From a virus: DNA of 15,682 nucleotides. The stretch's first letter is position 1, and each line of letters starts with the position of its first letter. Below, in pieces: positions 482 through 15,561 of the stretch. The position numbers and the translations under genes were made by a program. The DNA lies in IMG/VR virus record IMGVR_UViG_3300028534_000011, positions 1-15,682 of that record; one strand, written 5' to 3'. The notes under the pieces are model-generated. The model was not told where the DNA came from. It worked only from the letters and a program-made list of their open reading frames with translations, and did no database searches.

Positions 482-482
482 T

Positions 483-2105: not shown

Positions 2106-2107
2106 TT

Positions 2108-2791
2108 TTATTCCTTAAATTGTTCTACTTTAATACCACATTTTTTCATTAATTCTAATCCTGATGTTTCTCTGTACTCTTCTATGTACACAACTCTTTT
2201 TATGCCTGATTGAATTATCATTTTAGAGCATTCTGAACAAGGACTTAATGTTACGTAAAGAGTTGTTCCTTTTAATGGAATTCCTTCTTTTGCTGCAAAA
2301 AGAATAGCATTCGCTTCAGCATGAATGACTTTTGAATGATCAGTAATTAATTCTTTTTTAGTTTCAAAATCTCCTATTAATCTATAATTACCAGAATTAT
2401 CATTAGCATGATTAATAAATCCTATTTGATCGTGACATTTACTGCAATAAATTTTATTGCTTTTCAAGTCTTCGATAATATCTGCTTTACAACATTTGCT
2501 TACCAATTTTTCTTTTTCTTTTTCACAATCTAATTCTTTAGGAATTTGAATTATTCCTGTTCCTTTACATTTATAACAAACATTATAGTTTATTATTCCA
2601 ATTCCTTTGCATTCATCACATATTTTTTCTTCATATTCTATATAACCAGAAGGAGTCCCATTATATCCAATTGAAATAATTCTTGAATCTTTAGCTATTA
2701 CTGCTCCGACTTTATTTCTAATACATTTGCTCTGCTGAGCCCAAAGCTCAGCAGTTTTTAACATTGTTTTGTCAATTTGATATTTAGTCAT
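2108..2791 (-). CDS. cd: dCMP deaminase (T4 Cd-like) with an enlarged Cys-rich insertion
   Basis: 227 aa. VGAVIAKDSRIISIGYNGTPSG, IHAEANAILFAA and YVTLSPCSECSKMIIQSGIKRVVY match the zinc-deaminase HAE/PCxxC motifs and closely match T4 Cd. An ~100-aa insert between GYNG and HAE carries CDECKGIG...CYKCKGTG plus further Cys pairs. Confidence 0.9.
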   Translation of the reverse strand: MTKYQIDKTMLKTAELWAQQSKCIRNKVGAVIAKDSRIISIGYNGTPSGYIEYEEKICDECKGIGIINYNVCYKCKGTGIIQIPKELDCEKEKEKLVSKCCKADIIEDLKSNKIYCSKCHDQIGFINHANDNSGNYRLIGDFETKKELITDHSKVIHAEANAILFAAKEGIPLKGTTLYVTLSPCSECSKMIIQSGIKRVVYIEEYRETSGLELMKKCGIKVEQFKE

Positions 2792-2794
2792 TTT

Positions 2795-3016
2795 TTATCC
2801 TTTATATCCAATTTCATCTATTTCATTTTCGATTTCTTTTAGAAGTTCATCATGATTCAAAAAGAATTCAATTGTATTTGAAAACATTTTATCAAATTTA
2901 TCAATAAGGTAATCTTCATCTTCTTCATAGAAATAAGCTCTTTCCCATAATTCTTTGAATTTTGAAAAATTGATTCTATTATAAATGTAAAGTAGAACTT
3001 TTCTTGTTTTACTCAT
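2795..3016 (-). CDS. Hypothetical protein, first gene of the transcription unit
   Basis: 73-aa ORF. RBS AAAGGAGTTAAAATG lies directly downstream of the cassette promoter. No recognisable motif. Confidence 0.6.
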   Translation of the reverse strand: MSKTRKVLLYIYNRINFSKFKELWERAYFYEEDEDYLIDKFDKMFSNTIEFFLNHDELLKEIENEIDEIGYKG

Positions 3017-3213
3017 TTTAACTCCTTTTTGTTTTATTTACAGTAAAATTATAACATTTTTTCAAATAAATGTAAACAAAAATTAAATAAAATTTGTAAA
3101 ATTTTGTAAAATTTATAAAAATTCATCAGAGATGAATCCAGAGATGATTTCTATAAAAGACATATAAAACTATATTAAAATAATTTTTATATACCAGAAA
3201 CCTTCAGAGAGGA
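3017..3213 (-). repeat. Regulatory cassette copy B (complete; distal stem-loop degenerate)
   Basis: Same block order as copies C and D. The terminal hairpin is eroded to ccttcagagagg (3-bp stem). The second hairpin ATTCATC-AGA-GATGAAT at 3121-3137 is intact. Confidence 0.8.
3048..3076 (-). promoter_or_regulatory. Sigma70-type promoter: -35 TTTACA (3071-3076), 17-nt spacer, extended -10 TGTTATAAT (-10 at 3048-3053)
   Basis: Read directly on the minus strand: TTTACATTTATTTGAAAAAATGTTATAAT. About 30 nt upstream of the RBS/ATG at 3016. A/T-phased TTTACAAAATT repeats lie upstream. Confidence 0.75.
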
Positions 3214-3456
3214 TCAATTGAAAGGAGGAAGTATTTGATAGGAGTTTATTTTAAGTGAAGTATTTTTAGAAGAACAATTTAATATTATTTTCATTATATT
3301 ATTTTTTAAAATTATTTTCAATGTATATGGCAGACCTAAATGACTTAATATTTTATTGAATAAATTAATTTTAATATTTATTTCAAAATTAAATTCTTTT
3401 GCAACGTTTTCAACATCATTAAAATTTTTGATATTTAAAATTTTGTCAAATAACAT
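3214..3456 (-). CDS. Hypothetical protein
   Basis: 80-aa ORF, RBS AAAGGAGTTAAAATG, last gene of its unit. No motif recognised. Confidence 0.55.
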   Translation of the reverse strand: MLFDKILNIKNFNDVENVAKEFNFEINIKINLFNKILSHLGLPYTLKIILKNNIMKIILNCSSKNTSLKINSYQILPPFN

Positions 3457-3474
3457 TTTAACTCCTTTAAATTT

Positions 3475-3705
3475 TTATAAATATTTTAAATAAAATTCAG
3501 GAATAGCATCTAATTCTTCAACAATTTTCAAAGGTATAAAATTTATGTTTGCCACTTTTTCAGGAGAATTATATTTTAATTCTGATTTTATTTTTTTAAT
3601 CCAATTAATAACAGATAGAGTGTAATCTCCTTCTTTGTTTTTTATTTTTGCTAATTTGCAATAAATTTTATTAAGTTTTTTAATCATTAATGGATTTACG
3701 TTCAT
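3475..3705 (-). CDS. Hypothetical protein
   Basis: 76-aa ORF. Its start overlaps the GGDEF gene end by 26 nt. Weak RBS AAAGGCAGAAAATG. Confidence 0.5.
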   Translation of the reverse strand: MNVNPLMIKKLNKIYCKLAKIKNKEGDYTLSVINWIKKIKSELKYNSPEKVANINFIPLKIVEELDAIPEFYLKYL

Positions 3706-4144
3706 TTTCTGCCTTTGATTGAATTATTTTTTTATCTAATTTATTGAAAATTTTTCTAAAATCCATTTTTAAAGGATTGTATATTTCGTAAACATAATTA
3801 CCATATTTTTCTTTAATTGAAAATGGCTTTTTTGAGAAAATCAAAAATTCATCTCCACCTATTCTAAAAATTTCTGATTTTATATACTTTAATTCTTTTT
3901 TTAAATATTCAGAAAATTCTAAGATATATTCATTACCTTTTTCCCATCCATATTTTCTATTAATTTTATGTAAATTATTTAAATCAACTAAACAAACAAC
4001 ATAATCAGAATTTTCACTAGAAATGTAATTCAAAAAATCTTTTAATTTATATCTATTTCCAAAACCAGTTAAATCATCATGTTTTAATTTATGAATTTCT
4101 TCTTTTAATTCTATAATTTCTTTTTTTAATTTTTCACAATCCAT
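3680..4144 (-). CDS. Minimal GGDEF-domain protein (putative diguanylate cyclase) with a short N-terminal coiled coil
   Basis: 154 aa. Motifs: DDLTGFGNRY (the DxLTGLxNR entry motif), VDLNNLHKINRKYGWEKGNEYIL (metal-binding D/N region) and RIGGDEFLIF (intact GGDEF, nt 3845-3859). No RxxD I-site five residues upstream of GGDEF. RBS AAGGATAATAAAATG. Confidence 0.8.
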   Translation of the reverse strand: MDCEKLKKEIIELKEEIHKLKHDDLTGFGNRYKLKDFLNYISSENSDYVVCLVDLNNLHKINRKYGWEKGNEYILEFSEYLKKELKYIKSEIFRIGGDEFLIFSKKPFSIKEKYGNYVYEIYNPLKMDFRKIFNKLDKKIIQSKAENERKSIND

Positions 4145-4314
4145 TTTATTATCCTTACAATAAAATCTGAAACATCTATCATTCCAATTAAAACAAAAAT
4201 AGTCAAAATATCATAAGTAATATTTTTATCAATTTTAGCGATATAAATTACCAAAAAATAAAGAAATAAAAAAATGATTAATTTGTATATGAAATTAATG
4301 ATTATTTCTTTCAT
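4126..4314 (-). CDS. Small membrane protein (two predicted TM helices)
   Basis: 62 aa, hydrophobic runs IIFLFLYFLVIYIA and ILTIFVLIGMI. Its 3' end overlaps the GGDEF start by 19 nt. Confidence 0.6.
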   Translation of the reverse strand: MKEIIINFIYKLIIFLFLYFLVIYIAKIDKNITYDILTIFVLIGMIDVSDFIVRIIKWIVKN

Positions 4315-4400
4315 TTTATGTTCCTTAAAAAGTAAAATATTAATAAAATTAATATTACAACTGAATATATAATAATAAAAATAATATCTAGTAGTTCCAT
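4311..4400 (-). CDS. Unannotated 29-aa hydrophobic peptide (MELLDIIFIIIYSVVILILLIFYFLRNIK)
   Basis: Not in the supplied ORF track, which lists nothing under 62 aa. The ATG lies 1 nt after the upstream stop, with AAAAGGTTTAAAATG as RBS. Its TGA overlaps the next ATG (ATGA). It would form a single TM helix. Confidence 0.4.
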   Translation of the reverse strand: MELLDIIFIIIYSVVILILLIFYFLRNIK

Positions 4401-4401
4401 T

Positions 4402-4602
4402 TTAAACCTTTTCTCTTAAGATATATAGATTAGATAAATAATCAAAAAAATTTAATCCTGTACATTTTGAAATTTCTTTTATAAAATTTGCAGTAGATTG
4501 ATTATATAAATAATCTTCAAATTGTTCCCAATTTTCAAAATGTACATTAGTACATTCTTTTATTTGTTTTAAAATTTTTTGTCTAAATTCATGTATTGTC
4601 AT
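4402..4602 (-). CDS. Hypothetical protein
   Basis: 66-aa ORF with a 4-nt ATGA overlap with the upstream ThyX-like gene. Confidence 0.6.
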   Translation of the reverse strand: MTIHEFRQKILKQIKECTNVHFENWEQFEDYLYNQSTANFIKEISKCTGLNFFDYLSNLYILREKV

Positions 4603-5537
4603 TGTTTTCCCTCAAATAATAATTGTTTTATTCCTTCAACTGTTTTTTTAGTTTGTTCTTGAGTCCAATCTTTATAATATTCTGGAAATGCACTTCTTTG
4701 TAAACATAAATGTTCCCAAGTTGTGGGATCATTAATCCAACCTGCCATAAACCAAGTTTTGTATTTTAGTCCATAATGAAATCTTTGGTAAATTTCTTTT
4801 GGATACCCTAACTCTTTTAATATTTCATAAACTTCATTTGTAGAGAAATTATAAAATAAGTCTTTCTTCAACTCCTCTATATTTTGACTGTCCTGATATT
4901 CTAAGAATAATTCATATATATCAAATTCTAAACTTCTTTTTCCTGACCACTCTTTTTCTAAAATTTCTTTCATTCTATCAAATATGTCAGTAGGCAGCCA
5001 ATAATCAGTTTCCTCAACCACCCTTTCTGATATTGCTATTTTAGATAATGCTTGATGAGTATATAATTGATCAAATACAAAATGTGGTGCTTTGATTTTA
5101 ACAACTTTAAAGTCTTTTACCTCTTCTTCTGTATTAAAAGGCACATACTCAAATAATCCTGAATTGTATACTGCTCTAAAGTTAGTGCAAATATTATAAT
5201 TTTCATCTATGTAAGAATATCTTAGCAAATTATTAATTATAATTCTGTTGATATTACTTGTTAACATAGATAATTTTACTGGACAAAACTCTAATGCTCT
5301 GCTTGCATTTCTATGATCTTCTTTTGCTTCATTGATAGTATTTGGAGCTGCTTCTCTTAACAAATGTTCATATCTTTTTCTTGGGTTTGCTGAACTGTCT
5401 TTACCTCTGCTTATTGCCGCTATACTAGTTATAAAATCAATTCTTTTTTCTTTACTTAAATTTGCTTTTGATGAATCAATTAATTCTACATAACCAAGAT
5501 TATCTGGTAAATCTATATGTTTTAATACCTTTAGCAT
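4599..5537 (-). CDS. Divergent ThyX-like (flavin-dependent thymidylate synthase fold) protein with a non-canonical signature
   Basis: 312 aa. GYVELID...IAAISRG, and KAPHFVFDQLYTHQALSKIAISERV, are collinear with Thermotoga ThyX GFVELVD...AARVS and [25 protein letters not shown]. The later LCLQRSA aligns with LNLRADSHA. The RHR signature reads THQ (nt 5052-5060). Confidence 0.55.
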   Translation of the reverse strand: MLKVLKHIDLPDNLGYVELIDSSKANLSKEKRIDFITSIAAISRGKDSSANPRKRYEHLLREAAPNTINEAKEDHRNASRALEFCPVKLSMLTSNINRIIINNLLRYSYIDENYNICTNFRAVYNSGLFEYVPFNTEEEVKDFKVVKIKAPHFVFDQLYTHQALSKIAISERVVEETDYWLPTDIFDRMKEILEKEWSGKRSLEFDIYELFLEYQDSQNIEELKKDLFYNFSTNEVYEILKELGYPKEIYQRFHYGLKYKTWFMAGWINDPTTWEHLCLQRSAFPEYYKDWTQEQTKKTVEGIKQLLFEGKQ

Positions 5538-5538
5538 T

Positions 5539-5718
5539 TTAAACTCCTTCTTTTATTTTATAAGTCCATCTATTGAATTTTTCAATTTTTCCTTCTTTAA
5601 TTAATTTTTTAAGTGCATCCCTGATAATTGTTTTTTTTATTCCTAATATTTTTTCAAGTAAAGATACTCTAAAATATTCTACTTCTTTTGCAATTTTCAT
5701 AATTTCTTCTTCAAACAT
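5539..5718 (-). CDS. Unannotated 59-aa winged-helix/HTH-like small DNA-binding protein
   Basis: Not in the supplied track. Sequence: MFEEEIMKIAKEVEYFRVSLLEKILGIKKTIIRDALKKLIKEGKIEKFNRWTYKIKEGV. Strong RBS GGAGGAGTTAAATG. ATGTTTGA overlap with the kinase stop, and its stop lies 1 nt before the next ATG. The helix-turn-helix plus beta-wing pattern resembles small wHTH regulators. Confidence 0.55.
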   Translation of the reverse strand: MFEEEIMKIAKEVEYFRVSLLEKILGIKKTIIRDALKKLIKEGKIEKFNRWTYKIKEGV

Positions 5719-6205
5719 TTAACTCCTCCATTACTTTATTTATTTTTTCTTTTAATTTATTTAAATTTTTTTCTGTGTTGTCTATAATTATTTCATTCTC
5801 AACATCAAATTTTTCTGGATATTCTTCTTTAATGTTTTTATCAATAACGTGAATAAAAATCACATCATCGATTTCTTTTATTTTTTTGTATTCAATTTCA
5901 AATCTACAATCAGATATAATATTTATTTTTGTGACATCTAATTGCTTTATGATTGATTTTACCCAAAAATCTGGATATACTTTTTTTATTTCTTCACCCA
6001 GCCATATAAGATATTTTCTGTATTTTTTCTTATTTTTTTCTAATTCTTTACATGATATTTCTTTTATATTACAAATAATTTTTTTAATCAAAGAAGCAAA
6101 TGAATATCTATTTGGTTTAATTCCTTTATTTTTAAAATATTCTTCTATTAAATCAGCAACTGTATCTTTTCCAACTCTTTTCTCTCCATAAATAAGAATT
6201 GTCAT
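5711..6205 (-). CDS. Deoxynucleoside monophosphate kinase (T4 gp1 family)
   Basis: 164 aa. MTILIYGEKRVGKDTVADLI matches T4 gp1 MKLIFLSGVKRSGKDTTADFI. Also DFWVK/MYWVK and SDCRFEIE/PDTRQDHE. First gene after a cassette promoter. Confidence 0.7.
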   Translation of the reverse strand: MTILIYGEKRVGKDTVADLIEEYFKNKGIKPNRYSFASLIKKIICNIKEISCKELEKNKKKYRKYLIWLGEEIKKVYPDFWVKSIIKQLDVTKINIISDCRFEIEYKKIKEIDDVIFIHVIDKNIKEEYPEKFDVENEIIIDNTEKNLNKLKEKINKVMEELNV

Positions 6206-6236
6206 TTAAAATCCTTTTTAATTTGTTTACAATAAA

Positions 6237-6265
6237 ATTATAATATATTTTAAAATAGATGTAAA
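6237..6265 (-). promoter_or_regulatory. Sigma70-type promoter: -35 TTTACA (6260-6265), 17-nt spacer, -10 TATAAT (6237-6242)
   Basis: Minus strand reads TTTACATCTATTTTAAAATATATTATAAT. It is positioned upstream of the RBS and the ATG at 6205. Confidence 0.75.
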
Positions 6266-6375
6266 TAAAAATTAAAAGAAATTTATAAAATTTCTAAAAT
6301 TTCATCAGAAATGAATCCAGAGGTAATTTGTAAAAAAGATATATTTTTATATCAAAAATATTAAAATACATCAGA

Positions 6376-6391
6376 GACCTCCAGAGAGGTC
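6376..6391 (-). terminator. GC-rich stem-loop (GACCTC-TCTG-GAGGTC) just after the MazG-like stop codon
   Basis: 6-bp stem and 4-nt loop. Same element as 101-118 and 11353-11368. Confidence 0.45.
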
Positions 6392-6392
6392 C

Positions 6393-6914
6393 TTATTTAT
6401 ATTTTTTAATAATTTCTTGATATATAGGATCTGATTCTTTTATAAAATTTCCTTCAGGTGTAAGAAATCCTTTTCTATCTTTTATTTCATTATATGCGCA
6501 TTCTAATGCATAATTTGGATCAATATATTCAAATCTAGAATATCCAGTCAGATATTCATAACTTTTTTCAATTAAATCTGCTGCAGACTTGTAATCATGC
6601 TTGATGATTTTATCTCCTATATTACAAATATGTTCTGCAACTTCATTAAGAGAATTAAATTCTTTAGAATAATTAAAATTTATTTCTAAATCGTCTTCTA
6701 ATCTTAACAACTCACTTAAATTAATAAGAACAACTTGAACATCACCTATTGCATCAATCAATTTTTCTTTGTCTAACAATCTTAGTGCTTCATAAATTTC
6801 TGAAAATTCACCCATTAATTTTGCAAATTGAACTAATGGTGAAGCATTTGGAATTATTCCTCTATCTTTACTCCATTGAATCACTTTATTTCTTAATTCT
6901 TCATTCATTTTCAT
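6393..6914 (-). CDS. MazG-like all-alpha NTP pyrophosphohydrolase (candidate dCTPase, functional analogue of T4 gp56)
   Basis: 173 aa. FAKLMGEFSEIYEAL...AIGDVQVVLINLSE is the typical ExxE / GD helix pair of MazG/DCTPP1-type enzymes. The dCTPase role is inferred from context only. Confidence 0.65.
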   Translation of the reverse strand: MKMNEELRNKVIQWSKDRGIIPNASPLVQFAKLMGEFSEIYEALRLLDKEKLIDAIGDVQVVLINLSELLRLEDDLEINFNYSKEFNSLNEVAEHICNIGDKIIKHDYKSAADLIEKSYEYLTGYSRFEYIDPNYALECAYNEIKDRKGFLTPEGNFIKESDPIYQEIIKKYK

Positions 6915-7492
6915 TTCATCTCCTTTAATGTTTGTTTAATTTTATTTAATTCTTCTTTTGTATTAAAATATAAAGTTGATTTATTTGCTTTATATGCAAA
7001 AAAACCATTCATAATAACTAAATCAAGAAAATCTTCTTGATTGTTATTTAATTTTCTAATTTTAAAAATTGAATTATCTTGCCATCCTGTTTTATGTTTA
7101 GTATAACCAAAAATTTTGTTGTTTTTATCCATTTCAAATGAAACATATGCATTTATTCTATATGTTACAGTCATATAATTTATTTTAACAAAATCTGCTT
7201 TTAAAAATTCATCAATATTTGAATCTGAAAAAAACACGTCAGACCAACATATATTTATTTCTCCCAACATTTTATGTAATTTATAAACATCTTTGCCACT
7301 TCCTTTTTGAAAATCTCCAATTAAAAATTCTGATTTTAAATGTTTTATATCTTCATATATTTTAGGTGTTGTAACTATAATTGGAGTTATTCCAAAATTT
7401 TTAAAGACATTTTTATTCCATTCAAATGTTTCCAAAATTTTTGGACTTCCAAATCTGCTTGATTTTCCTGCTGCCATTATAAATATTTCCAT
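6911..7492 (-). CDS. Small GT-A fold nucleotidyltransferase (sugar-phosphate / MobA-CofC-like NTP transferase)
   Basis: 193 aa. The N-terminal IMAAGKSSRFGSPKILE matches the (L/A)AGxGxR(x)nPK signature of GlmU/IspD/MobA-type nucleotidyltransferases. 4-nt overlap with the MazG-like gene. Confidence 0.65.
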   Translation of the reverse strand: MEIFIMAAGKSSRFGSPKILETFEWNKNVFKNFGITPIIVTTPKIYEDIKHLKSEFLIGDFQKGSGKDVYKLHKMLGEINICWSDVFFSDSNIDEFLKADFVKINYMTVTYRINAYVSFEMDKNNKIFGYTKHKTGWQDNSIFKIRKLNNNQEDFLDLVIMNGFFAYKANKSTLYFNTKEELNKIKQTLKEMK

Positions 7493-7501
7493 TTTAACTC
7501 C

Positions 7502-9172
7502 TTATAAAATTGAATTGTCAATGAATTTTAAAATTGTATAAGTATCATAAGGACTTTTTACTTCTAAACACGTCATATTTTCAAACATTTCTTTGTCATT
7601 TCCATCTTTTTCATCAGCGATATAGATTGTTTTATCTAAATTCAAATAAATTTTATTTTTTATTTGTTTAATATTTTCATATTTATTTGTCATTTTACTC
7701 ATTATGTCAATAGTAGATACTCCTGCTTTTCTTATGTATATTTCATTTTTTTCTATTTCATCTTTAAACAATTCAATTAGATAATTATATAATACTTCTC
7801 TGTAATCATCATCTAAAAATCTTAAAGAAATAACAGAATCTGCTCTGTTTTCATATTTTGAAAAATTAAATTTTACTCTTTTAAGAGCATTAAAAATTTT
7901 ATTTTGATCTTTAATAACATTTAATTTTAAAATTATATTTCTTTTATAATCATAAACAGTATTTGCATAATTACAAAAATAATAATTAAATTTTCCTTTA
8001 ATTTCATTTATATCTTTACCTGTTACTAAAATTGTTTCGATAGGCAATTTTTCTACCAATTCAATGACTTTAAGTGATATTTCAATATCATTGATGTTTC
8101 TTGACATTAAAGTATCATCATAATCAATCATTAATGTTTGCAATTTTTTAGGATTTAATCCTTTTTCTTTAAAATATTCTTCTAGTATTTTATATGCTAA
8201 AAGATTTCCATCGTGTTTGTTTTCATAATATTCACTTTTAAAATTACAAACAATTTCATTGTCAACATTTAAATGAATATCTGAAAATACTTTATCAAAT
8301 TTAACATATTTTGAAATGATTTCAAACTGCTCTTTTTTTGAATATCCTTTCATATCTTTATCTGTGGAAACATTCATAATTAAATAAACTTCTTTATTTT
8401 TAATAGATTCATTAAATCCTTTTGTCTTATATGTCGGTATGAGTGATGAAAATTGAGTTCCAGCACTTAAAACAATTAAATCAGAATCTTTTATTATTTT
8501 TTTAGCTCTTTCAGATAAAATTGGCTGTTTTTCATTTCCATACTTGTCAATAAAAAATATGTCTACAATTCTATTATTAGGATTATTCCACTCTACAATT
8601 TTTCCTTCATCATAAATAATATAATTATTTTCAGTTTTTGCACATAAAAACAGAGATGTATCATCTGTCACAATAATATTATTAGGTAAATTTAAATATT
8701 TAGCCATTATATCAGCTGCTTTTTGTAATGAATAATTATTTAAATATGCTAAACCTCCATATATAATATTTGCCAAAGAAAAATCATCATATCTTATTTT
8801 TCTTGCAAGAGGCTGTTCAAAATAAACATTTACTGCTTCTATCAATTCATTTGGAAAATCTTTTATTAATTCTTTAATTTCTTTTTCTGGATTTTTATAA
8901 AATGAATATCTTTTATTTAAAATATTAAAAATTTTTTCAGATTCTTCTGTTTTAATTTCATTTCTATAAAGTTGATAATCAAGAAATTGTTGTTTTCTAA
9001 CGTCTGATGGACCAAGAATATTGCCATCAAAAACTTTTCTTATAAGACCAGTTGATTTACCATTGTCATATGCATTTACGAGCGTATATAAATTTACAAA
9101 AGGAATATATTTTGATAATCCTTTTTTCAATTCTACTGAACCTGTTCCACCTGATACAATAAGTACTTTCAT
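7502..9172 (-). CDS. Fusion protein: N-terminal CofD/YvcK family (UPF0052, 2-phospho-L-lactate transferase-like) plus C-terminal HAD-IIB phosphatase-like domain
   Basis: 556 aa. The N-terminal domain (about aa 1-335) has VLIVSGGTGSVELKKGL, NAYDNGKSTGLIRK...GPSDVRK and DLIVLSAGTQFSSLIPT...VYLIMNVSTDKDMKGYS, collinear with CofD/YvcK motifs. The C-terminal domain has LMIDYDDTL (HAD motif I DxDxT), LVTGKD (motif II) and ADEKDGNDKEMF (motif IV). Confidence 0.7.
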   Translation of the reverse strand: MKVLIVSGGTGSVELKKGLSKYIPFVNLYTLVNAYDNGKSTGLIRKVFDGNILGPSDVRKQQFLDYQLYRNEIKTEESEKIFNILNKRYSFYKNPEKEIKELIKDFPNELIEAVNVYFEQPLARKIRYDDFSLANIIYGGLAYLNNYSLQKAADIMAKYLNLPNNIIVTDDTSLFLCAKTENNYIIYDEGKIVEWNNPNNRIVDIFFIDKYGNEKQPILSERAKKIIKDSDLIVLSAGTQFSSLIPTYKTKGFNESIKNKEVYLIMNVSTDKDMKGYSKKEQFEIISKYVKFDKVFSDIHLNVDNEIVCNFKSEYYENKHDGNLLAYKILEEYFKEKGLNPKKLQTLMIDYDDTLMSRNINDIEISLKVIELVEKLPIETILVTGKDINEIKGKFNYYFCNYANTVYDYKRNIILKLNVIKDQNKIFNALKRVKFNFSKYENRADSVISLRFLDDDYREVLYNYLIELFKDEIEKNEIYIRKAGVSTIDIMSKMTNKYENIKQIKNKIYLNLDKTIYIADEKDGNDKEMFENMTCLEVKSPYDTYTILKFIDNSIL

Positions 9173-9174
9173 TT

Positions 9175-10263
9175 TTACTCCTTCAATAATTCTGATAATT
9201 TTTGTGAATATTCAATTGGATCAATTTTACAATCTTCATATTGCAAATCACAGATTTTTTTGCATAGTTCTTCAGATTCTTTGATTTTCTTTAATTTTTC
9301 TTGTACTTCATATTTATTTTGGACATATAACAATTTTTTAAGCTTTTCATTATTGAATGCTCTTTTTTCTGGATCTAATTTAATATCAATAAATGAAATA
9401 TTATTAGCCAAAACACCTTCATATATTCTTTGATTTAATGTATTTCCATAATATTTTTTATCTCCAATGTTTACAGTTGCTTTAAATTCATTCATTTTAT
9501 TCAAAAATTTTGAATATTCAACTGGTTTTTCAAATTTTGGTGGATTTCCATGAATTTCTGGATTATATTTCTTAAATTTATTTAATGTTATAGGTCCAAA
9601 AACTTCAACATCTAAATCTAATCCAAAATAATATTCTAGAATTTGTTCTTCTCTTTTGCCTCCTCTTAATGTTCCTCCATATCCTAAATCTTTTATTTTT
9701 TTAGACCAATCCCATTTTAATCTTTCATTTAATAATGGAAACTTATAAAACTCAAAAAATTTATAATCTCTTGGTTTGATTTGCTTTTCAATTTGTTTTT
9801 TAAATGGATCTATATTATAAGGCTGATGAATATAAACAATATCATCACGTGTAATTAAAATGTCTTCTTTTTTCCATTTTTTTCCCCAAGGTTTCTTCTC
9901 TACAATTGACCAAATTTGTTTCAAATGAAGCTCAGGATCACAATACATATAATAAACAGGTCCTTTATAACTGTTTATTATTTTATAATTTATAAGTTGA
10001 GTATAATCTTCTTGACCTCCAAAAAAATTTACATTACCATTAATGATAACAAGTGCATCAAAATTATTTTGTAAATTAAAAAATTCATCAATTTGATGCC
10101 CAATTGCAAAATCAATAGGAGGATCATTATTTAATATTTTTGTAAAATAATGAACTTCATTTGTAAATGAAAGAGTTTTAATAATAGAAAGGGCTTCACC
10201 TGAACCTCCTGAAGTCCCTTTGTTTGCAATTCTTGCACCTAATTTGATAACTGCTATTTTCAT
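9175..10263 (-). CDS. DNA beta-glucosyltransferase-like glycosyltransferase (T4 BGT family)
   Basis: 362 aa. Matches to T4 BGT: MKIAVIKLGARI / MKIAIINMGNNV; FDALVIINGNVNFFGG / YDRLIVVNSSINFFGG; YYMYCDPEL / YYLFTDIRL (catalytic Asp); YGGTLRGGKREE / YGGSFRSGQRES (UDP-binding Arg pair); NIGDKKY...NQRIYEGV / IIGDKNY...TLRVWETM. Confidence 0.8.
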   Translation of the reverse strand: MKIAVIKLGARIANKGTSGGSGEALSIIKTLSFTNEVHYFTKILNNDPPIDFAIGHQIDEFFNLQNNFDALVIINGNVNFFGGQEDYTQLINYKIINSYKGPVYYMYCDPELHLKQIWSIVEKKPWGKKWKKEDILITRDDIVYIHQPYNIDPFKKQIEKQIKPRDYKFFEFYKFPLLNERLKWDWSKKIKDLGYGGTLRGGKREEQILEYYFGLDLDVEVFGPITLNKFKKYNPEIHGNPPKFEKPVEYSKFLNKMNEFKATVNIGDKKYYGNTLNQRIYEGVLANNISFIDIKLDPEKRAFNNEKLKKLLYVQNKYEVQEKLKKIKESEELCKKICDLQYEDCKIDPIEYSQKLSELLKE

Positions 10264-10655
10264 TTGTTTTCCTTTAATTCATTTAATTTTTTATCAAGCT
10301 CTAAATTTATAATTTTCAAAGATTTATTCAGAATTGGAGATATTTTTTTGTCAATTTTTAATTCTTTGCCTGCATTATATCCTAAGTAAGAATAAAATAA
10401 ATATTTCTTAGGAATTAAAACAGCAATTAAAATTCCAATAATGACTGTTACTATAATTCCTTTGATGTATCCCATAAGATTTGATTTTATTTTTTTAATT
10501 TTTTCTATTTCTTCTTTTTCTTTACAACAATAATCTAAAACCATTCCATCATACAAAAATAATAAAACTAACATAGAACATCCACCAAAAATTAATATAT
10601 ATTGTAATTTTTCTAATACATCATAAAAATAAAGAAGAAGAAAAATTTTTTCCAT
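10260..10655 (-). CDS. Membrane protein (hypothetical)
   Basis: 131 aa. Hydrophobic segments YILIFGGCSMLVLLFLY and IIVTVIIGILIAVLI. 4-nt overlap with the BGT-like gene. Confidence 0.6.
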   Translation of the reverse strand: MEKIFLLLYFYDVLEKLQYILIFGGCSMLVLLFLYDGMVLDYCCKEKEEIEKIKKIKSNLMGYIKGIIVTVIIGILIAVLIPKKYLFYSYLGYNAGKELKIDKKISPILNKSLKIINLELDKKLNELKENK

Positions 10656-10656
10656 T

Positions 10657-11169
10657 TTAAACTCCTAATTCTTTTTTATAAAATTCTTTAAATTCATTCC
10701 AATAAATAGAATTTTTAATTAATTCTATATATTTTTTATCCCAATTATTAATGTTTGGCAATCCTTGGTGTTTTAATGAATCATCTATATCCCAAACAAG
10801 CATAGGAAAATTATATTTTCCTTCAAAATAATAATGAAAATATTTTTCATTAAATTTATTTGGAAATGTTTCGCATGCTTCTCTCAATTCTTCTTTGTTC
10901 CTAAACAAAATTACTTTATCTGTAAATAAATTTGAAAGTTTATTATGGTTAATGTAATCTTCAATTAAATTTTTATAGCAATAAAACATATCACCAACAT
11001 ATGTATAATAAAATTCATTTTCTGGAATATATAAAATTAATTTTATAGTACCATCTTCAATTTTTTCTTCTATGATTGAATCTTTTGAAATTAAAGTGAT
11101 AATTTCATCTAAATCATCTATATTTTTTGTAATTTTAAATCTTTCAAATAATTCTTTTAATCTTTCCAT
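10657..11169 (-). CDS. Hypothetical protein, first gene of its unit
   Basis: 170-aa ORF. RBS AAAGGAGTTAAAATG downstream of a cassette promoter. Confidence 0.6.
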   Translation of the reverse strand: MERLKELFERFKITKNIDDLDEIITLISKDSIIEEKIEDGTIKLILYIPENEFYYTYVGDMFYCYKNLIEDYINHNKLSNLFTDKVILFRNKEELREACETFPNKFNEKYFHYYFEGKYNFPMLVWDIDDSLKHQGLPNINNWDKKYIELIKNSIYWNEFKEFYKKELGV

Positions 11170-11201
11170 TTTAACTCCTTTTAATTTATTTTAACATTAA
11201 A

Positions 11202-11230
11202 ATTATAACACTTTTTCAAATAAATGTAAA
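11202..11230 (-). promoter_or_regulatory. Sigma70-type promoter: -35 TTTACA (11225-11230), 17-nt spacer, extended -10 TGTTATAAT (-10 at 11202-11207)
   Basis: Minus strand reads TTTACATTTATTTGAAAAAGTGTTATAAT, upstream of the RBS and the ATG at 11169. Confidence 0.75.
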
Positions 11231-11347
11231 TAAAAATTAAAAGAAATTTGTAAAATTTTATTAAATTTCTAAAATTTCATCAGAGATGAATCAAGAAATG
11301 ATTTCTATAAAAGATATATAAAAATATATCAAAATAATTTTTATTCA

Positions 11348-12337
11348 TCAGAGACCTCCAGAGAGGTCCAAAATATATTTGTAATTTCCATAATCATAAG
11401 ATATATAATATTCATTTTTTAGCATTATTTCTTTTTCAGAAAGATTTTCATCATAAAATTTTAAAAATCCTTCTTCATAGTATTTTTTAAGTTTATGTTT
11501 TTGAAATTTTTGCCTTGGATAAATTATTCCATTTTTTATATAAAAATAATTCGGTTTTGTTTCTCCTATCAATTTAAATTTATTTTTGTTATACGTATTT
11601 TCTTTATAAGTCCATCTTTTGTTTCCATAGCTTACCAAATATTTATATTCTTTTAACTCAGGAATATTTTTCAAAGAATATTTTAAAAGTTTACTAAATG
11701 CTCCAATAATAATTGTATACTTTTTAGAAGCAAATCTATATAATTCAAATTCATCTTTTTTGAATCTTGATTTTCCAAAAGTCATTACCGAAACTAATTC
11801 ATTATTATAATATAATCCTATTTTATATTTTGAAGGAATATATCCTTGCAAATGATTTTCTTCTAGAAAATTTGCAGTCTCTTTTGATGAAATTTCTTTA
11901 ATTATACAGTTTCTTGCATATATTTTTTGAATAAAAGGTGCTCTCATTTTAACAGCAATTTTAGATTTCCAGATATCTTTTTTTAAAGAATCTGTCCATT
12001 CATATTCTTTAATTGTAAATAAATGAATTCCTTTTTCTAGACATAAATTATATTTATTAATATATAAATCTTGGTGCCAATAATCTCCATCAAATTCTAT
12101 AGCAAAATTGTATTCTGGGATATAAATATCCAATTCATATGGAGATATGATTTTTCTTGTATTTGTTTGAATTTCTTTAGAATAAAATGATTTTATAAAA
12201 GAAACAATTTCAATTTCATATTGAGATTTGACATTTTTAAAATATAAAGGAATATCTATTTCAAATATTTTAAAAATTTTATGAATAGTTCTATAATTTA
12301 AATTAAAATCTTCACATATTTTTTGTGCATCAATCAT
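11348..12337 (-). CDS. Homing-endonuclease-like protein, C-terminal part (Vsr/PD-(D/E)XK-like nuclease core plus Hef-like C-terminal domain). The open frame continues without a start codon up to 12637.
   Basis: ELDIYIPEYNFAIEFDGDYWH is the typical Vsr/DUF559-type nuclease motif. I checked triplet by triplet that the frame has no stop from 12637 to 11348 (430 codons). There is no in-frame ATG/GTG/TTG upstream of 12337 and no RBS before that ATG. Confidence 0.55.
   Translation of the reverse strand: MIDAQKICEDFNLNYRTIHKIFKIFEIDIPLYFKNVKSQYEIEIVSFIKSFYSKEIQTNTRKIISPYELDIYIPEYNFAIEFDGDYWHQDLYINKYNLCLEKGIHLFTIKEYEWTDSLKKDIWKSKIAVKMRAPFIQKIYARNCIIKEISSKETANFLEENHLQGYIPSKYKIGLYYNNELVSVMTFGKSRFKKDEFELYRFASKKYTIIIGAFSKLLKYSLKNIPELKEYKYLVSYGNKRWTYKENTYNKNKFKLIGETKPNYFYIKNGIIYPRQKFQKHKLKKYYEEGFLKFYDENLSEKEIMLKNEYYISYDYGNYKYILDLSGGL
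11353..11368 (-). terminator. GC-rich stem-loop (GACCTC-TCTG-GAGGTC), here encoding the last codons (LDLSGGL) of the endonuclease ORF
   Basis: Identical core to 6376-6391. The stop codon TGA at 11348-11350 lies in the conserved tcatcagag flank. Confidence 0.4.
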
Positions 12338-12439
12338 ATCTAATTTTTCATCATAATAATTAAAAATAGCATAATAAATATGATTGTATTTTTTCTTAAA
12401 TGTTTCTTTTTCTTTATTAATTCTAATTAAATATGAATT

Positions 12440-12861
12440 ATTTACACCATATTTTTCTTTTAAAGAATTAATAATTTTATTTCTGACTATAGGAGAAGAA
12501 ATAGCATATTCAGTTCCATATTTTTCTAAATTTGTTTTCTTAACTTTTTCTTTTAAACTATCTGATTGTAAAGGAATTATACTTCCATATTTTTCTAAAT
12601 TTGTTTTTTTAATTTTTTCTCTAACTTCTTTAAGAACTTAATGACTATTCAACTCCATATCTTTTTAAATTAGTCTGTTTTATTTTTTCTTTAATTTTTT
12701 CAGATTTTAAAGGATTATCAACTCCATATTTTTCTAAATTTGTTTTCTTGATTTTTTCTTTAATTTTTTCTGATTTCATAGGATTATCAACACCATACCT
12801 CTCTTTTACTGTTTCTTTTACTTTTGCATATTTACATTCTTTTTTTCCACAAGTTTTACTG
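12440..12861 (-). repeat. Six tandem 69-bp (23-aa) coding repeats, consensus KxTNLEKYGVxNPxxSxxIKEKI
   Basis: The YG codon core (ccata on +) recurs at 12447, 12516, 12585, 12655, 12724 and 12793. Spacing is 69 nt throughout, except 70 nt between 12585 and 12655, which is exactly where the ORF breaks. Confidence 0.85.
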
Positions 12862-13121
12862 TAATTTTTACCATTAAATTTTAATTTTTTTTCTTTACAT
12901 ATCGGACAAATAGGCATATATAAAATTTTTTTAAATATACAATAATTTAATTCAGATTTGTTTTTGCACCAATAAAAAGCTTCAAAGGCTTTATCTAATA
13001 AAGAAGGATTATGTTGAAAAATTGTTTTAATACTATTTCTTGTTTTATTTTCAAAATATTCTATCAATTCAAGTCTTACATTATATTTTTCAGGAGAATC
13101 CTGAAATTTATTCTTTTTCAT
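12645..13121 (-). CDS. Homing-endonuclease-like protein, N-terminal part (CxxC...C...C zinc-finger region plus the first KYGV repeats)
   Basis: 158 aa with CPICKEKKLKF...CGKKEC followed by ERYGVDNPMKSEKIKEKIKKTNLEKYGVDNPLKSEKIKEKIKQTNLKRYGVE. It stops at a TAG, while the repeat array continues downstream in another frame. Its start overlaps the end of the hydroxymethylase gene by 14 nt. Confidence 0.55.
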   Translation of the reverse strand: MKKNKFQDSPEKYNVRLELIEYFENKTRNSIKTIFQHNPSLLDKAFEAFYWCKNKSELNYCIFKKILYMPICPICKEKKLKFNGKNYSKTCGKKECKYAKVKETVKERYGVDNPMKSEKIKEKIKKTNLEKYGVDNPLKSEKIKEKIKQTNLKRYGVE

Positions 13122-13803
13122 TTATAAACCTTTCAATATATTTGAAATGCCTTTCATAAACATGAAAACTTGAAGCAGTCCAAATAATAGATCCTAATTC
13201 TAATTCTGGATATGTTTTTTTAAGTTCACTGTATAGTTTATTTTGAACATATTGGGCCCAATATACATCATTTTGAAATCCAAAAACTGCATCATTACTT
13301 CTCATAACATAATGACTAATTAATTTATTGTCTCTAATAAAACATTGATTATACATCGTACAAATAAAATCACTCATTCCATTTTTGTTATATTCATAAT
13401 GCATACTAGGTCTATTATAAATCATAATAGCTCTTCTAGAATAAGGATTTCTTTTTAATTCTCTTATACAATTTTTAAATTGATCATAATTTTCTTTACT
13501 GAAAATAATCCAACCATAATTTGAATTTATAAATCCATCTTTATCTGAAACTTGTTTCCAAATCTCAGGAACTTTGCCTGGAATATCATAGACATTAAGA
13601 CTTTGACTTTCATACCATTCAATTTCTCTTTTTGCATAATCTATGTTTGTTTCTCTTATAATATATGGTTCATCAACTAAAAATGTAACTCCTATCAATT
13701 CAATCAATTTTGCACCTGTTTTATCAATGACAAAATCTTTATTTTTATATTTTTGAATAATCATATTTCTAATGTCTTTAATTTTAAGCATTTTTTCAAA
13801 CAT
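13108..13803 (-). CDS. Deoxycytidylate 5-hydroxymethyltransferase (T4 gp42-like dCMP hydroxymethylase)
   Basis: 231 aa, collinear with T4 gp42 at the same residue numbering. Matches: KDFVIDKTGAKLIELIG / KDFVVDKTGVKTIEIIG; REIEWY (Glu60); INSNYGW; NPYSRRAIMIYNRPSM; GMSDFICT (Cys148); MRSNDAVFGFQND (Asp179, the cytosine-specifying residue where thymidylate synthases have Asn). Confidence 0.9.
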   Translation of the reverse strand: MFEKMLKIKDIRNMIIQKYKNKDFVIDKTGAKLIELIGVTFLVDEPYIIRETNIDYAKREIEWYESQSLNVYDIPGKVPEIWKQVSDKDGFINSNYGWIIFSKENYDQFKNCIRELKRNPYSRRAIMIYNRPSMHYEYNKNGMSDFICTMYNQCFIRDNKLISHYVMRSNDAVFGFQNDVYWAQYVQNKLYSELKKTYPELELGSIIWTASSFHVYERHFKYIERFINEKE

Positions 13804-13814
13804 TTTTTCTCCTT

Positions 13815-14342
13815 TTATTTTAATCTTAATTTTGTTAAAATTTCATTATGAACTTGCTCAGGATCTTTTTTATTTATATTAATTAAAACTTTATTTTTTA
13901 TAGTACTCAATTCATATACTTTCTTAAATAATTCAATTTCTTTTTTCTTCATTTCGATATTTGTTGAAAATGAATATCCATCTTCTCTTTTTATTAAATT
14001 TTCAGGTTTGTCTATTAATACAATTAGATATAAATCATTAATTTCATTTATTTTGTGATTTCTTTCTAAATCTATCACATAAAGACCTTCATATCCTCTA
14101 TAAAGTTTTCCATATACCAATTCACCTAAATGACTTCTATCTGCTATAATATTGTATTTTTTAAGTAATTCAAAAAATTCAGAATAAAGTTTTATATTAT
14201 AATCAATACAATCAATAATTGAATCATGTTTCACTGCACTATAATGAACTGTATGAAAAGTGATTTTATTAAATTTATCTTTTATTAATTTTATTTGAGT
14301 CGTTTTTCCAACGTTGTCTGGACCTTCAAAAATTATTTTCAT
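13815..14342 (-). CDS. P-loop nucleoside monophosphate kinase, thymidylate kinase-like
   Basis: 175 aa. IIFEGPDNVGKTT resembles the Tmk P-loop (EGxDGxGKTT). ADRSHLGELVYG resembles the Tmk DRxxxSxxAY motif. Substrate is unknown. Confidence 0.55.
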   Translation of the reverse strand: MKIIFEGPDNVGKTTQIKLIKDKFNKITFHTVHYSAVKHDSIIDCIDYNIKLYSEFFELLKKYNIIADRSHLGELVYGKLYRGYEGLYVIDLERNHKINEINDLYLIVLIDKPENLIKREDGYSFSTNIEMKKKEIELFKKVYELSTIKNKVLININKKDPEQVHNEILTKLRLK

Positions 14343-14674
14343 TTTAATTCCTTTATTTCAATTTCATCTATAAAATTATCTATAAAATTTAACAATATAT
14401 TATATATGCCATTTACTTTTTTCACAATATAAAAATCATCTGTATTTTTCAAAATTTCATATCTTATTTTTCTGATTTCATTGAATTTTAATTTTTCTTC
14501 TATTTTTTTCACAATATAATCTCTTATTTTATCTTTTGCTAATATATCTGTATCTATAAAAGATGGAATTTCATTTTTTGAAAATACTATATTTAATTCA
14601 TCACTTTTTAATTCTCCATAATATTTTTTAAAATTATCATCAATTTCTTTTTTTATTTCTAATTTGATTTTCAT
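14339..14674 (-). CDS. Hypothetical protein
   Basis: 111-aa ORF with 4-nt overlaps on both sides. Confidence 0.6.
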   Translation of the reverse strand: MKIKLEIKKEIDDNFKKYYGELKSDELNIVFSKNEIPSFIDTDILAKDKIRDYIVKKIEEKLKFNEIRKIRYEILKNTDDFYIVKKVNGIYNILLNFIDNFIDEIEIKELK

Positions 14675-15213: not shown

Positions 15214-15222
15214 TTTAACTCC

Positions 15223-15561
15223 TTATTGTATTTCAATCACAATTATTTTTTCTTTGTTTAATTCTTTCATTGCATTTTTGACTTCATCAATCAAATTTGA
15301 TAATATTTTTTTAAAATCATCTTCATTGTAGTCTACCACAGAATTTTTTTCATCATTTAATGCATAATTAGTATAATCTACGAGAAATATTTCAACATTT
15401 GTATCTTTTTTACTTAAATTATAAACATCTCCATCCCAATAAATACCATAACCTTTTTCATTACAATATTCATCAATAATATCAGTAAATGTTTCAATTC
15501 TTTTATCATTTACTTTTACAGTATCTACTTTGTCTGCAATTAATTTTACTTCTACTTTCAT
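15223..15561 (-). CDS. Hypothetical acidic protein, first gene of its unit
   Basis: 112-aa ORF. RBS AAAGGAGTTAAAATG downstream of a cassette promoter. Confidence 0.6.
   Translation of the reverse strand: MKVEVKLIADKVDTVKVNDKRIETFTDIIDEYCNEKGYGIYWDGDVYNLSKKDTNVEIFLVDYTNYALNDEKNSVVDYNEDDFKKILSNLIDEVKNAMKELNKEKIIVIEIQ

Follow-up and report, generated by a model that had tools for sequence, protein, structure and literature searches.

A T4-type beta-glucosyltransferase gene is conserved in phages beside a YvcK-mutase fusion and a nucleotidyltransferase that may supply its nucleotide sugar

Why should a phage that encodes a glucosyltransferase for its DNA also carry enzymes that look like donor-building chemistry? 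Phage T4 takes its UDP-glucose from the host. The question is raised by a window of 15,682 nucleotides (the whole stretch of viral DNA analysed here, positions 1 to 15,682 of IMG/VR record IMGVR_UViG_3300028534_000011), which encodes a homologue of the T4 beta-glucosyltransferase (BGT), a protein fusing a CofD/YvcK-superfamily domain to a HAD-IIB domain, a small nucleotidyltransferase (NTase) and a MazG-like protein. The original prediction, made from the sequence alone, described these four genes as a hypermodification operon for 5-hydroxymethylcytosine (5hmC) and offered two readings, that the phage makes its own unusual nucleoside diphosphate (NDP)-sugar for the BGT-like enzyme, or that a phosphodiester-linked group is added to 5hmC or to its sugar. 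We found all four open reading frames (ORFs) on the minus strand with exactly the boundaries that it gave, and the homologies that it proposed were borne out, with refined calls, by Pfam, PHROG, PDB and fold searches. Our analysis favors the first reading: we hold with about even confidence that the UDP-hexose with which 5hmC is beta-glycosylated is of the phage's own making, through a module of three genes, those of the BGT, the fusion protein and the NTase.

The base on which such a transferase would act can be read from the thymidylate synthase (TS) homologue of the window, a gp42 orthologue (dCMP hydroxymethylase, or 5hmdCMP synthase; 13108..13803, minus strand) that matched T4 dCMP hydroxymethylase 1b49 at 5e-75. 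A 2026 study showed that RB69-type phage TS homologues make 5-hydroxy-dCMP and that their marker is D169N in E. coli ThyA numbering; the signature of 5hmC is N177D together with L143D/E and a retained D169, D169N giving 5-hydroxycytosine (5hoC) (PMC13326640). The window protein carries the motifs SDFICT and MRSNDAVFGFQND, that is, L143D, a retained D169 and N177D, and the 5hmC signature with D at position 169 was found in 20 of 20 distinct module-adjacent TS homologues, including ORF10 of the Ralstonia jumbo phage RsoM2USA. From these residues 5hmC is a well-supported prediction for the acceptor base of the modification, as originally proposed. We also considered the TS homologue as a maker of 5hoC, of the RB69 type, or of 5-hydroxymethyluracil, the latter because a dCMP deaminase gene is present in the window; both candidates were rejected on the match to T4 gp42, the retained D169 and N177D. 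The presence of both a gp42-like and a gp1-like gene, the second claim made about the base chemistry, was confirmed by PDB searches for the former and by Pfam and PHROG for the latter. The gp1-like dNMP kinase (5711..6205, minus strand; PHROG 139, 4e-27; Pfam DNMK, 2e-9) is the first gene of the next transcription unit, and a thymidylate-kinase-like P-loop kinase next to the gp42 gene (13815..14342, minus strand; Pfam Thymidylate_kin, 1.4e-9; PHROG 761) is a candidate 5hmdCMP kinase.

The transferase gene (9175..10263, minus strand) encodes a GT-B protein of 362 amino acids. It matched Pfam PF09198 (T4-Gluco-transf) at 1.5e-24, with 87 bits against a cutoff of 27, PHROG 7922 (beta-glucosyltransferase) at 5e-55 and T4 BGT itself (PDB 1bgt) at 1.3e-35 over residues 1-343. 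The equivalents of T4 E22, D100, G188, R191, R195, Y261, R269 and E272 are invariant or near-invariant across 30 distinct module-linked BGT homologues; those of the catalytic (E22, D100) and UDP-binding (R191, R195, Y261, R269, E272) residues are kept in 29 or all of the 30, and the window protein keeps every one that we checked. Following the T4 structural literature, we take Asp100 and Glu22 to be catalytic and Arg191, Arg195, Arg269 and Glu272 to bind UDP. With these residues conserved, the donor is expected to be a UDP-sugar and the mechanism to be inverting, and the window BGT is predicted to be a UDP-hexose:5hmC-DNA beta-glycosyltransferase. It is 44% identical to ORF2 of RsoM2USA and ~28% identical to the T4 enzyme, and it is unlike T4 at positions 240 (M to Y) and 243 (V to M), so that the transferred sugar could differ.

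Downstream of the BGT gene lies the gene of the 556-amino-acid fusion protein (7502..9172, minus strand). Its residues 1-337 (8162..9172, minus strand) form a CofD-superfamily domain, matched by Pfam CofD at 1e-20 over residues 3-314. Searched against the PDB, the family profile of this domain found YvcK structures at 2e-25 to 4e-16, with YvcK 2ppv as the best, whereas the true CofD 3c3d scored 0.64, over the GGTG loop alone; the single sequence matched 2ppv at 9e-13. An AlphaFold model built from an alignment of 40 fusion sequences reached a predicted local distance difference test score (pLDDT) of 93.6, and Foldseek placed its N-domain with YvcK/UPF0052 proteins (TMt 0.73-0.77), M. mazei CofD (3c3d) being matched at TMt 0.69. 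Across the 40 homologues GGTGS, D36, S40-T41-G42 and R45 (STG..R45) are invariant and N37 is near-invariant. The second acidic position is thus N37, as in S. epidermidis YvcK 2ppv, and D36/N37 align with the DD pair of GlmR that is reported to be catalytic (PMC10128056, PMC13046274). The domain agrees with YvcK/GlmR (UPF0052) in sequence, in fold and in the GGTG and DDGGS(S/T)G motifs, and its profile score of 2e-25 for YvcK against 0.64 for CofD sets it outside the CofD branch. By these comparisons the N-domain is a member of the YvcK/GlmR branch and not a true CofD.

The closest relatives of the N-domain, GlmR/YvcK of Firmicutes and Actinobacteria, share with it the GGTG loop and the D-(D/N)-G-x-S-T-G motif. 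Unlike them, the viral proteins have a helical insert of ~50 residues (residues ~62-127), a fused domain of the phosphomannomutase (PMM) type and an obligatory NTase partner, and the YvcK 'GET' region is replaced in them by an invariant D271-x-D273. The context differs as well: the usual form is a stand-alone protein of ~320 amino acids in a yvcJ-glmR-whiA operon, whereas here there is no such operon, a HAD-IIB domain is fused, and BGT and NTase genes flank the fusion gene. A fold search of the fusion protein against the viral structures of BFVD returned HAD matches alone and no YvcK-like viral reference. YvcK/GlmR binds UDP-GlcNAc and has been reported to be a GlcNAc-1-phosphate uridylyltransferase with a catalytic DD motif (PMC10128056, PMC13046274).

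The C-terminal domain of the fusion (residues 338-556; 7502..8161, minus strand) had been labelled a HAD-IIB phosphatase. The HAD-IIB assignment, made from precomputed PF08282/PF03332 matches on homologues, from Foldseek and from the profile search, stands, and a mutase is likelier than a phosphatase. The profile of this domain matched PMM 7myv at 5e-15 and alpha-phosphoglucomutase (alpha-PGM) 4bnd at 9e-13, as compared with 9e-4 for the best phosphatase; the PMMs matched are of the eukaryote type and 4bnd is an atypical alpha-PGM. Foldseek likewise ranked PMM1/2 first, above trehalose-6-phosphate phosphatases. HAD motifs I-IV are all present: D350-x-D352-x-T354 (DxDxT), K497 and D520-E521..G524-N525-D526 are invariant in the 40 homologues, and the motif IV, GDxxxxGGNDxE, is of the PMM type and aligned with the PMM motifs. 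PMM2 R123 and R141, which we take to be cap arginines gripping the second phosphate, have their equivalents in R443, which is invariant, and R458, which is near-invariant. The profile, Foldseek and the cap arginines favor a mutase over a sugar-phosphate phosphatase (of the trehalose-6-phosphate or mannosyl-phosphoglycerate type), and the domain is best read as a hexose-phosphate mutase.

The third gene of the module (6911..7492, minus strand) encodes an NTase of 193 amino acids, resembling MobA and GlmU and predicted from its signature, family profile and AlphaFold2 fold to act on sugar phosphates. As a single sequence it gave no Pfam or PHROG match. A word-indexed search found 4 relatives and an exhaustive profile search ~100. 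The protein carries the signature AAGKSSRFG..PK (G-x-G-x-R..K; AAGKSSRFGSPK), in which G9, R13 and K18 are invariant over 48 sequences, and within this family Pfam matched NTP_transf_3 in 39 and IspD in 23 of the 48. Over its full length the family profile matched GlmU (8e-17) and the dual sugar-1-phosphate nucleotidylyltransferase ST0452 (8.5e-17) in the PDB, followed by CobY (2e-13), IPCT (2e-12), MobA, IspD and TarI. The AlphaFold2 model (pLDDT 96) was matched by Foldseek to ST0452 (TMq 0.80), GlmU, KdsB, MurU and RmlA. Both signature and fold are thus those of sugar-1-phosphate nucleotidyltransferases, and enzymes of this kind top the profile matches, with enzymes of other substrate classes (CobY, IPCT, MobA and IspD) also scoring. 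CofC/FbiD was missing from the best 60 sequence matches and from the top 50 fold matches, and no CofC Pfam match occurred in the family. An assignment of the NTase as a CofC was rejected, given its GlmU/ST0452-like family, fold and profile matches; as judged from these, the small protein is GlmU/ST0452-like and probably a sugar-1-phosphate nucleotidyltransferase. A bacterial fusion of this NTase to a GT4 glycosyltransferase, in Propionibacterium, further favors an NDP-sugar as its product.

The YvcK-branch N-domain, the GlmU/ST0452-like NTase and the mutase-type HAD domain together favor the reading in which the phage makes its own NDP-sugar over the one in which a phosphodiester-linked group is added. 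The original prediction had likened the NTase and the CofD-family enzyme to the CofC/CofD pair of F420 biosynthesis, and the analogy is weakened: a MobA-like NTase is indeed paired with a PF01933-superfamily protein whose N-domain superposes on CofD, but the CofD profile score is insignificant, the NTase is not CofC-like and the fused mutase has no F420 counterpart. No F420-pathway family was matched by the window proteins scanned against Pfam.

The phosphodiester reading nevertheless has a coherent chemistry of its own. The mutase and NTase would make an NDP-hexose or another NDP-phospho-compound, a DNA hydroxyl would attack its beta-phosphate, and the YvcK/CofD-like domain would in this way put a phosphodiester-linked group on glucosyl-5hmC or 5hmC with release of the nucleoside monophosphate; the glucosyl-5hmC would come from the BGT homologue and host UDP-glucose, and the product would be a phosphodiester-linked hexose-1-phosphate. 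We regard this scheme as possible but rather unlikely. Formation of a phosphodiester with release of GMP, by CofD in F420 biosynthesis, is the sole firmly established transferase chemistry of the PF01933 superfamily, and both this and the similarity of the N-domain to CofD (1e-20 in Pfam, TMt 0.69 on 3c3d) speak for it. It would also give all three activities distinct sequential roles, in keeping with the collinear triple fusion and with the invariant adjacency described below. MobA-like NTases partner in CofC/CofD- and CobY/CobS-type logic, CobY being among the profile matches at 2e-13, and the phosphodiester-linked sugar acid on the DNA of phage SP-15 is a precedent (PMC5977210). The scheme is at odds with the placement of the N-domain in the YvcK branch (2e-25, versus 0.64 for CofD) and with an NTase that lies nearer to GlmU/ST0452 than to the polyol- and lactyl-phosphate enzymes, CofC/FbiD not being among the matches listed. 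The bacterial NTase-GT4 and CofD-GT2 fusions also point away from it, to the supply of Leloir glycosyltransferases, and we know of no phosphodiester-modified 5hmC. That the YvcK/CofD domain is a true phosphotransferase acting on a DNA-borne sugar, drawing on an NDP-hexose produced in cis by the fused mutase and the neighbouring NTase and adding hexose-1-phosphate or another phospho-group through a phosphodiester to glucosyl-5hmC or 5hmC, we consider unlikely.

Co-occurrence of the fusion with gp42 and BGT homologues in other phages had been proposed as a check. A survey of 58 IMG/VR loci and other fetched loci with iterated profiles yielded 27 phage lineages at 60% clustering; clustered at 90% identity, the fusion family as a whole falls into at least 177 groups, of which many come from contigs of 100-430 kb. 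The fusion does co-occur with BGT genes, which stand on the same strand within 10 kb of it in 25 of the 27 lineages, mostly directly upstream and, in all but one lineage, within about 1.5 kb. The NTase gene is directly downstream of the fusion gene in 25 of 27 lineages, and also in RsoM2USA, across the record ends; it always adjoins, or is fused to, the gene of the YvcK-mutase protein. The core BGT-like > fusion > NTase is thereby syntenic in 25/27 phage lineages, in agreement with the initial view that the transferase travels with donor-building enzymes. A gp42-like gene was found in 19 and a Tmk-like kinase in 20 of the 27, and the typical order, on one strand, is gp42 > Tmk > BGT > fusion > NTase, with lineages diverging to ~30-60% identity. 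Foldseek on predicted models of the fusion and the NTase, another check put forward at the outset, returned the YvcK, PMM and sugar-1-phosphate nucleotidyltransferase folds described above.

Among 50,697 deposited phage genomes the carriers were RsoM2USA and one uncultured 462-kb phage, and no others. In RsoM2USA the order is the same, namely ORF2 (BGT-like, 44% identity), ORF1 (fusion, 32% identity) and ORF486 (MobA-like NTase, across the ends of the linear record), and ORF10, the TS homologue of the 5hmC type, lies 5.7 kb away. The paper describing this phage annotates ORF2 as a beta-glucosyltransferase and gives ORF1 and ORF486 no function.

The trio of YvcK-like domain, HAD domain and NTase also occurs outside phages. 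In 15 loci (among our loci L036-L042, L045-L047, L051-L053 and L055-L057, all IMG/VR giant-virus contigs) the three form a single polypeptide of 764-837 amino acids, YvcK-like(1-340)-HAD(344-545)-NTase(548-775). The contigs belong to giant viruses, as they encode the major capsid protein of nucleocytoplasmic large DNA viruses and a D5 primase-helicase. No BGT or gp42 gene lies within 10 kb of these triple fusions, and Pfam scans of their neighbours were mostly uninformative; in one locus (L046) a Fringe-like GT31 and a DUF6492 protein are encoded directly upstream. When GTDB species genomes were scanned, full-length fusions turned up in metagenome-assembled genomes (MAGs) of gut Firmicutes, in the order NTase > fusion and without BGT or gp42. 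Bacterial loci with variants of the module include L078, L086, L088, L090, L092 and L093. In a Dorea MAG (L078) the pair is flanked by genes for GT2, a TupA-like ATP-grasp protein, a second GT2 and a Wzx flippase, with an acyltransferase on the other side, and on a complete Neptuniibacter chromosome (L092) a shorter CofD-like gene and the NTase gene are interspersed among genes of the GT2, GT4 and asparagine-synthase-like kinds. In Christensenella each of the three activities has a gene of its own; Propionibacterium has a CofD-like+HAD_2 protein followed by an NTase+GT4 protein, and other MAGs have CofD-like+GT2 and CofD-like+NTase fusions.

These repeated independent fusions and adjacencies link the YvcK/CofD-like, HAD, NTase and glycosyltransferase functions with one another, and through the NTase-GT4 and CofD-GT2 fusions the product is connected with Leloir glycosyltransferases. 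The bacterial pair appears to be an undescribed and widespread glycan-biosynthesis module. Glycan synthesis would thus be the general setting of the trio, which phages appear to have coupled to a DNA glycosyltransferase.

The same occurrences can be told differently, with the YvcK-mutase fusion and the NTase as a general glycan or host-metabolism module parked beside DNA-modification genes, serving a virion or host surface polysaccharide or redirecting carbon into UDP-sugars, while the BGT uses host UDP-glucose as in T4. This account fits the giant viruses and the bacterial surface-polysaccharide loci, which have the pair or fusion but neither BGT nor gp42, and also the two phage lineages that have the fusion and no BGT within 10 kb. 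However, a same-strand BGT gene, placed between the 5hmC-synthesis genes and the NTase gene, in 25/27 divergent lineages is hard to explain without functional coupling, and in the window the BGT, fusion and NTase genes share one transcription unit. We judge a merely parked module to be decidedly unlikely.

With synthesis of a UDP-hexose by the phage as the preferred reading, the homologies, conserved catalytic residues, synteny and fusions that we observed are compatible with a scheme whose substrates and order of steps we propose as follows. The gp42 orthologue would make 5hmdCMP, which kinases would raise to the triphosphate, so that 5hmC enters the DNA. The PMM/alpha-PGM-type HAD domain would convert a hexose-6-phosphate into a hexose-1-phosphate, and the GlmU/ST0452-like NTase would turn this into a UDP-hexose, which could be of the glucose or the N-acetylhexosamine type. 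The BGT homologue would then move the sugar, in beta linkage, onto the hydroxymethyl group of 5hmC in DNA, giving the adduct that the scheme predicts. The YvcK/GlmR-like domain, the best-conserved part, would act in the same nucleotide-sugar pathway, perhaps as a second uridylyltransferase or as a UDP-sugar-binding element, as reported for GlmR, or perhaps in some further step.

Several considerations weigh against this scheme. It leaves the largest and most conserved domain, the YvcK-like one, without a necessary and distinct step, and a separate NTase would seem superfluous if that domain were a uridylyltransferase as well. Whether the uridylyltransferase activity of GlmR matters in vivo is disputed for S. 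aureus (bioRxiv 10.64898/2026.06.23.733835). Similarity of fold and profile does not fix the specificity for sugar and nucleotide. T4 does without such genes because hosts supply UDP-glucose, so any selective advantage of carrying them is conjectural. Finally, glycosyltransferases stand directly beside the triple fusion in just one of the three giant-virus loci examined. The probability that the readings discussed here leave over we assign to unforeseen chemistry.

How are these genes expressed together in the window? All substantial ORFs lie on the minus strand of this highly AT-rich DNA (G+C ~22%). The four genes had been placed in one unit running from a promoter to a stem-loop, with 4-nt overlaps. 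The unit is real, as judged from its terminal stem-loop and from matching stem-loop/promoter cassettes at both ends; it holds six ORFs rather than four, in the order orf170, orf131, BGT, fusion, NTase, MazG. A 4-nt overlap exists at the NTase/MazG junction, but gaps of 2 nt and 9 nt separate BGT from the fusion and the fusion from the NTase. The start of the BGT gene overlaps the stop of the upstream orf131 by 4 nt, and 1 nt separates orf170 from orf131. The first gene, orf170 (10657..11169, minus strand, an ORF call), had no match in Pfam or PHROG and no homologue in the other surveyed loci; orf131 (10260..10655, minus strand) encodes a small hydrophobic protein of PHROG 3878, which has no assigned function, with homologues limited to the closest relatives.

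In the sole intergenic gap upstream of the unit we noticed a promoter-like site, TTTACA-17-(TG)TATAAT (11202..11230, minus strand), with an 11/12 match and an extended -10 TG. The unit ends with the stem-loop GGACCTC-TCTG-GAGGTCC (6369..6392, minus strand), directly after the MazG stop codon, for which RNA folding gave -14.4 kcal/mol and a z of -2.9. An identical copy lies at 11346-11369 and a copy with 3 mismatches at 95-118, after uvsY; none is expected by chance. Stem-loop and promoter belong to a cassette of ~200 bp that is repeated with 88% identity, at 11375-11165 ahead of orf170 and at 6400-6200, and is made up of the stem-loop GGACCTCTCTGGAGGTC, TCTGATG, an AT-rich spacer, TTTACA-17-TATAAT and a ribosome-binding site. 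The second 11/12 site, at 6265-6237, follows the unit-end stem-loop and precedes the dNMP kinase gene. Promoter-like matches over the whole region were not above those in shuffles (51 versus 56.8), and we gave weight solely to the two 11/12 sites within the repeated intergenic cassette, which looks like the standard terminator/early-promoter punctuation of this phage.

The last gene of the unit encodes the MazG-like NTP pyrophosphatase (6393..6914, minus strand), matched by PHROG 1992 at 1e-37 and by four further MazG PHROGs, with no Pfam match at 0.01. The original prediction counted it as the fourth enzyme of the pathway. A single donor-building pathway of all four enzymes could appeal to the shared unit and to the 4-nt overlap of the MazG and NTase genes. 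Among the loci surveyed, however, MazG is near the module in the window and in its closest relative alone; it is adjacent in the window, lies 2.9 kb upstream and beside the TS homologue in that relative, and is missing from the module in every other lineage. Its tblastn matches are generic phage MazG-like proteins, that is, house-cleaning NTP pyrophosphatases, and nucleotide-pool control, such as the removal of dCTP by T4 gp56, is the established role of such enzymes in phages with 5hmC. No direct homology to gp56 was found, and MazG as a gp56 relative was rejected because the 25 tblastn records listed comprised just the generic MazG-like phage proteins. We therefore regard a four-enzyme pathway as highly improbable; MazG is probably a separate nucleotide-pool enzyme that is co-transcribed here by happenstance.

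The phage itself has a T4-like replication gene content. Pfam and PHROG scans found the T4-type replication/recombination genes UvsW and UvsY in the window, and a 119-kb metagenomic ENA contig (L065) that contains the window at 99.97% identity also codes for a ribonucleotide reductase and gp32. Megablast of the whole window against the 50,697 phage records gave no matches, indicating a phage without a close sequenced relative.

Some neighbouring genes deserve separate mention. Between gp42 and the glycosylation unit (11348-13121, minus strand) the ENA contig has one intact ORF of 590 amino acids with Pfam DUF7487 repeats; a TGG-to-TGA change at 12646 and a 1-nt insertion at 12633 split it in the window into ORFs of 158 and 329 amino acids. 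Its C-terminal part shows a sub-threshold match to the Mom DNA-modification family (1.9e-5, 24.9 bits; cutoff 27.1) and a PD-(D/E)XK-like motif, 'ELDIYIP..AIEFDGDYWH'. The dCMP deaminase gene (2108..2791, minus strand) was called from a Pfam domain match in which the 102-position domain is stretched across residues 7-203, the deaminase fold being split by an insert of ~100 residues with many CxxC pairs (zinc-ribbon or DnaJ-like). A 154-amino-acid phage protein (3680-4144, minus strand) carries a GGDEF diguanylate-cyclase domain (Pfam 1.2e-13) and is shorter than the 161-position model. At 14671-15213 (minus strand) there is a weak match to the uracil-DNA-glycosylase (UDG) superfamily (E 0.0067), and in the closest relative (L004) a UDG-like ORF at 9405-9944 lies between the BGT and fusion genes. 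The product of orf312 (4599-5537, minus strand; 312 amino acids), located roughly at the position of ThyX (Thy1) in that relative, had no homologue in Pfam, the PHROGs or any surveyed locus; a divergent ThyX was rejected, since it shows neither similarity to the ThyX of the relative nor a Pfam match.

How does the module compare with known systems of DNA glycosylation? As in the 5hmC pathway of T4, there are a gp1-like kinase, a BGT with conserved residues and a hydroxymethylase, orthologous to that of T4 (5e-75) and alike in its specificity residues; the difference is that here the BGT gene is locked in synteny with the YvcK-mutase fusion and NTase genes. In RB69, DLP3 and HY126, clusters for arabinosyl-5-hydroxycytosine encode phage synthesis of UDP-arabinose and DNA arabinosyltransferases (PMC13326640). 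There too a TS homologue modifies dCMP, a phage HAD enzyme and a nucleotidyltransferase build an NDP-sugar, and DNA glycosyltransferases install it. Unlike in those clusters, the TS homologue of the window keeps D169 (5hmC, not 5hoC), the transferase is of the BGT type, and the module is without an arabinose-5-phosphate isomerase and without a kinase domain; the HAD domain is PMM-like, whereas theirs is of the heptose-bisphosphate-phosphatase type, and those clusters have no YvcK/CofD domain. For SP-15, in silico assignments describe a cluster with phosphomannomutase, UTP-glucose-1-phosphate uridylyltransferase, glycosyltransferases and a CDP-glycerol glycerophosphotransferase (PMC5977210). 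A phage mutase and uridylyltransferase are proposed there to supply UDP-glucose, and a phosphotransferase to add the phosphodiester-linked group. SP-15, however, modifies a uracil derivative and not 5hmC, its enzymes are separate and of host-like types, and its phosphotransferase is of the TagF and not the CofD/YvcK type. By analogy, the UDP-arabinose genes of RB69 and DLP3 and the predicted PMM and uridylyltransferase of SP-15 may be taken as precedents for phage nucleotide-sugar supply. Full-text literature searches found no description of the module or of a CofD/YvcK-family enzyme in phage DNA modification, in line with the original remark that no such pathway has been described.

Nucleotide-sugar supply for DNA glycosylation therefore has phage precedents, and the module would be categorically new just if the phosphotransfer reading were true. 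In that case the DNA would carry a hypermodification resembling teichoic acid, made by the first DNA-modification pathway with an enzyme of the PF01933 superfamily; the same chemistry would also account for the triple fusions of giant viruses and the versions in bacterial polysaccharide loci, and would give the YvcK branch a catalytic function. Whichever chemistry holds, the fusions are a Rosetta-stone clue to the disputed function of YvcK/GlmR, a family of importance for the virulence of Gram-positive pathogens and for their cell-wall homeostasis. The survival of a phage in the face of restriction enzymes, CRISPR nucleases and type IV systems depends on glycosylated 5hmC, as does the range of enzymes that can cut or sequence its DNA. 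The sole cultured carrier of the module found here is RsoM2USA (MG752970). The occurrence of the cassette in at least 27 phage lineages, many on contigs of at least 100 kb and several as large as jumbo phages, suggests independence from host UDP-glucose in many uncultured phages, and phages with the module may attach a sugar or sugar-phosphate that has not been observed on DNA before.

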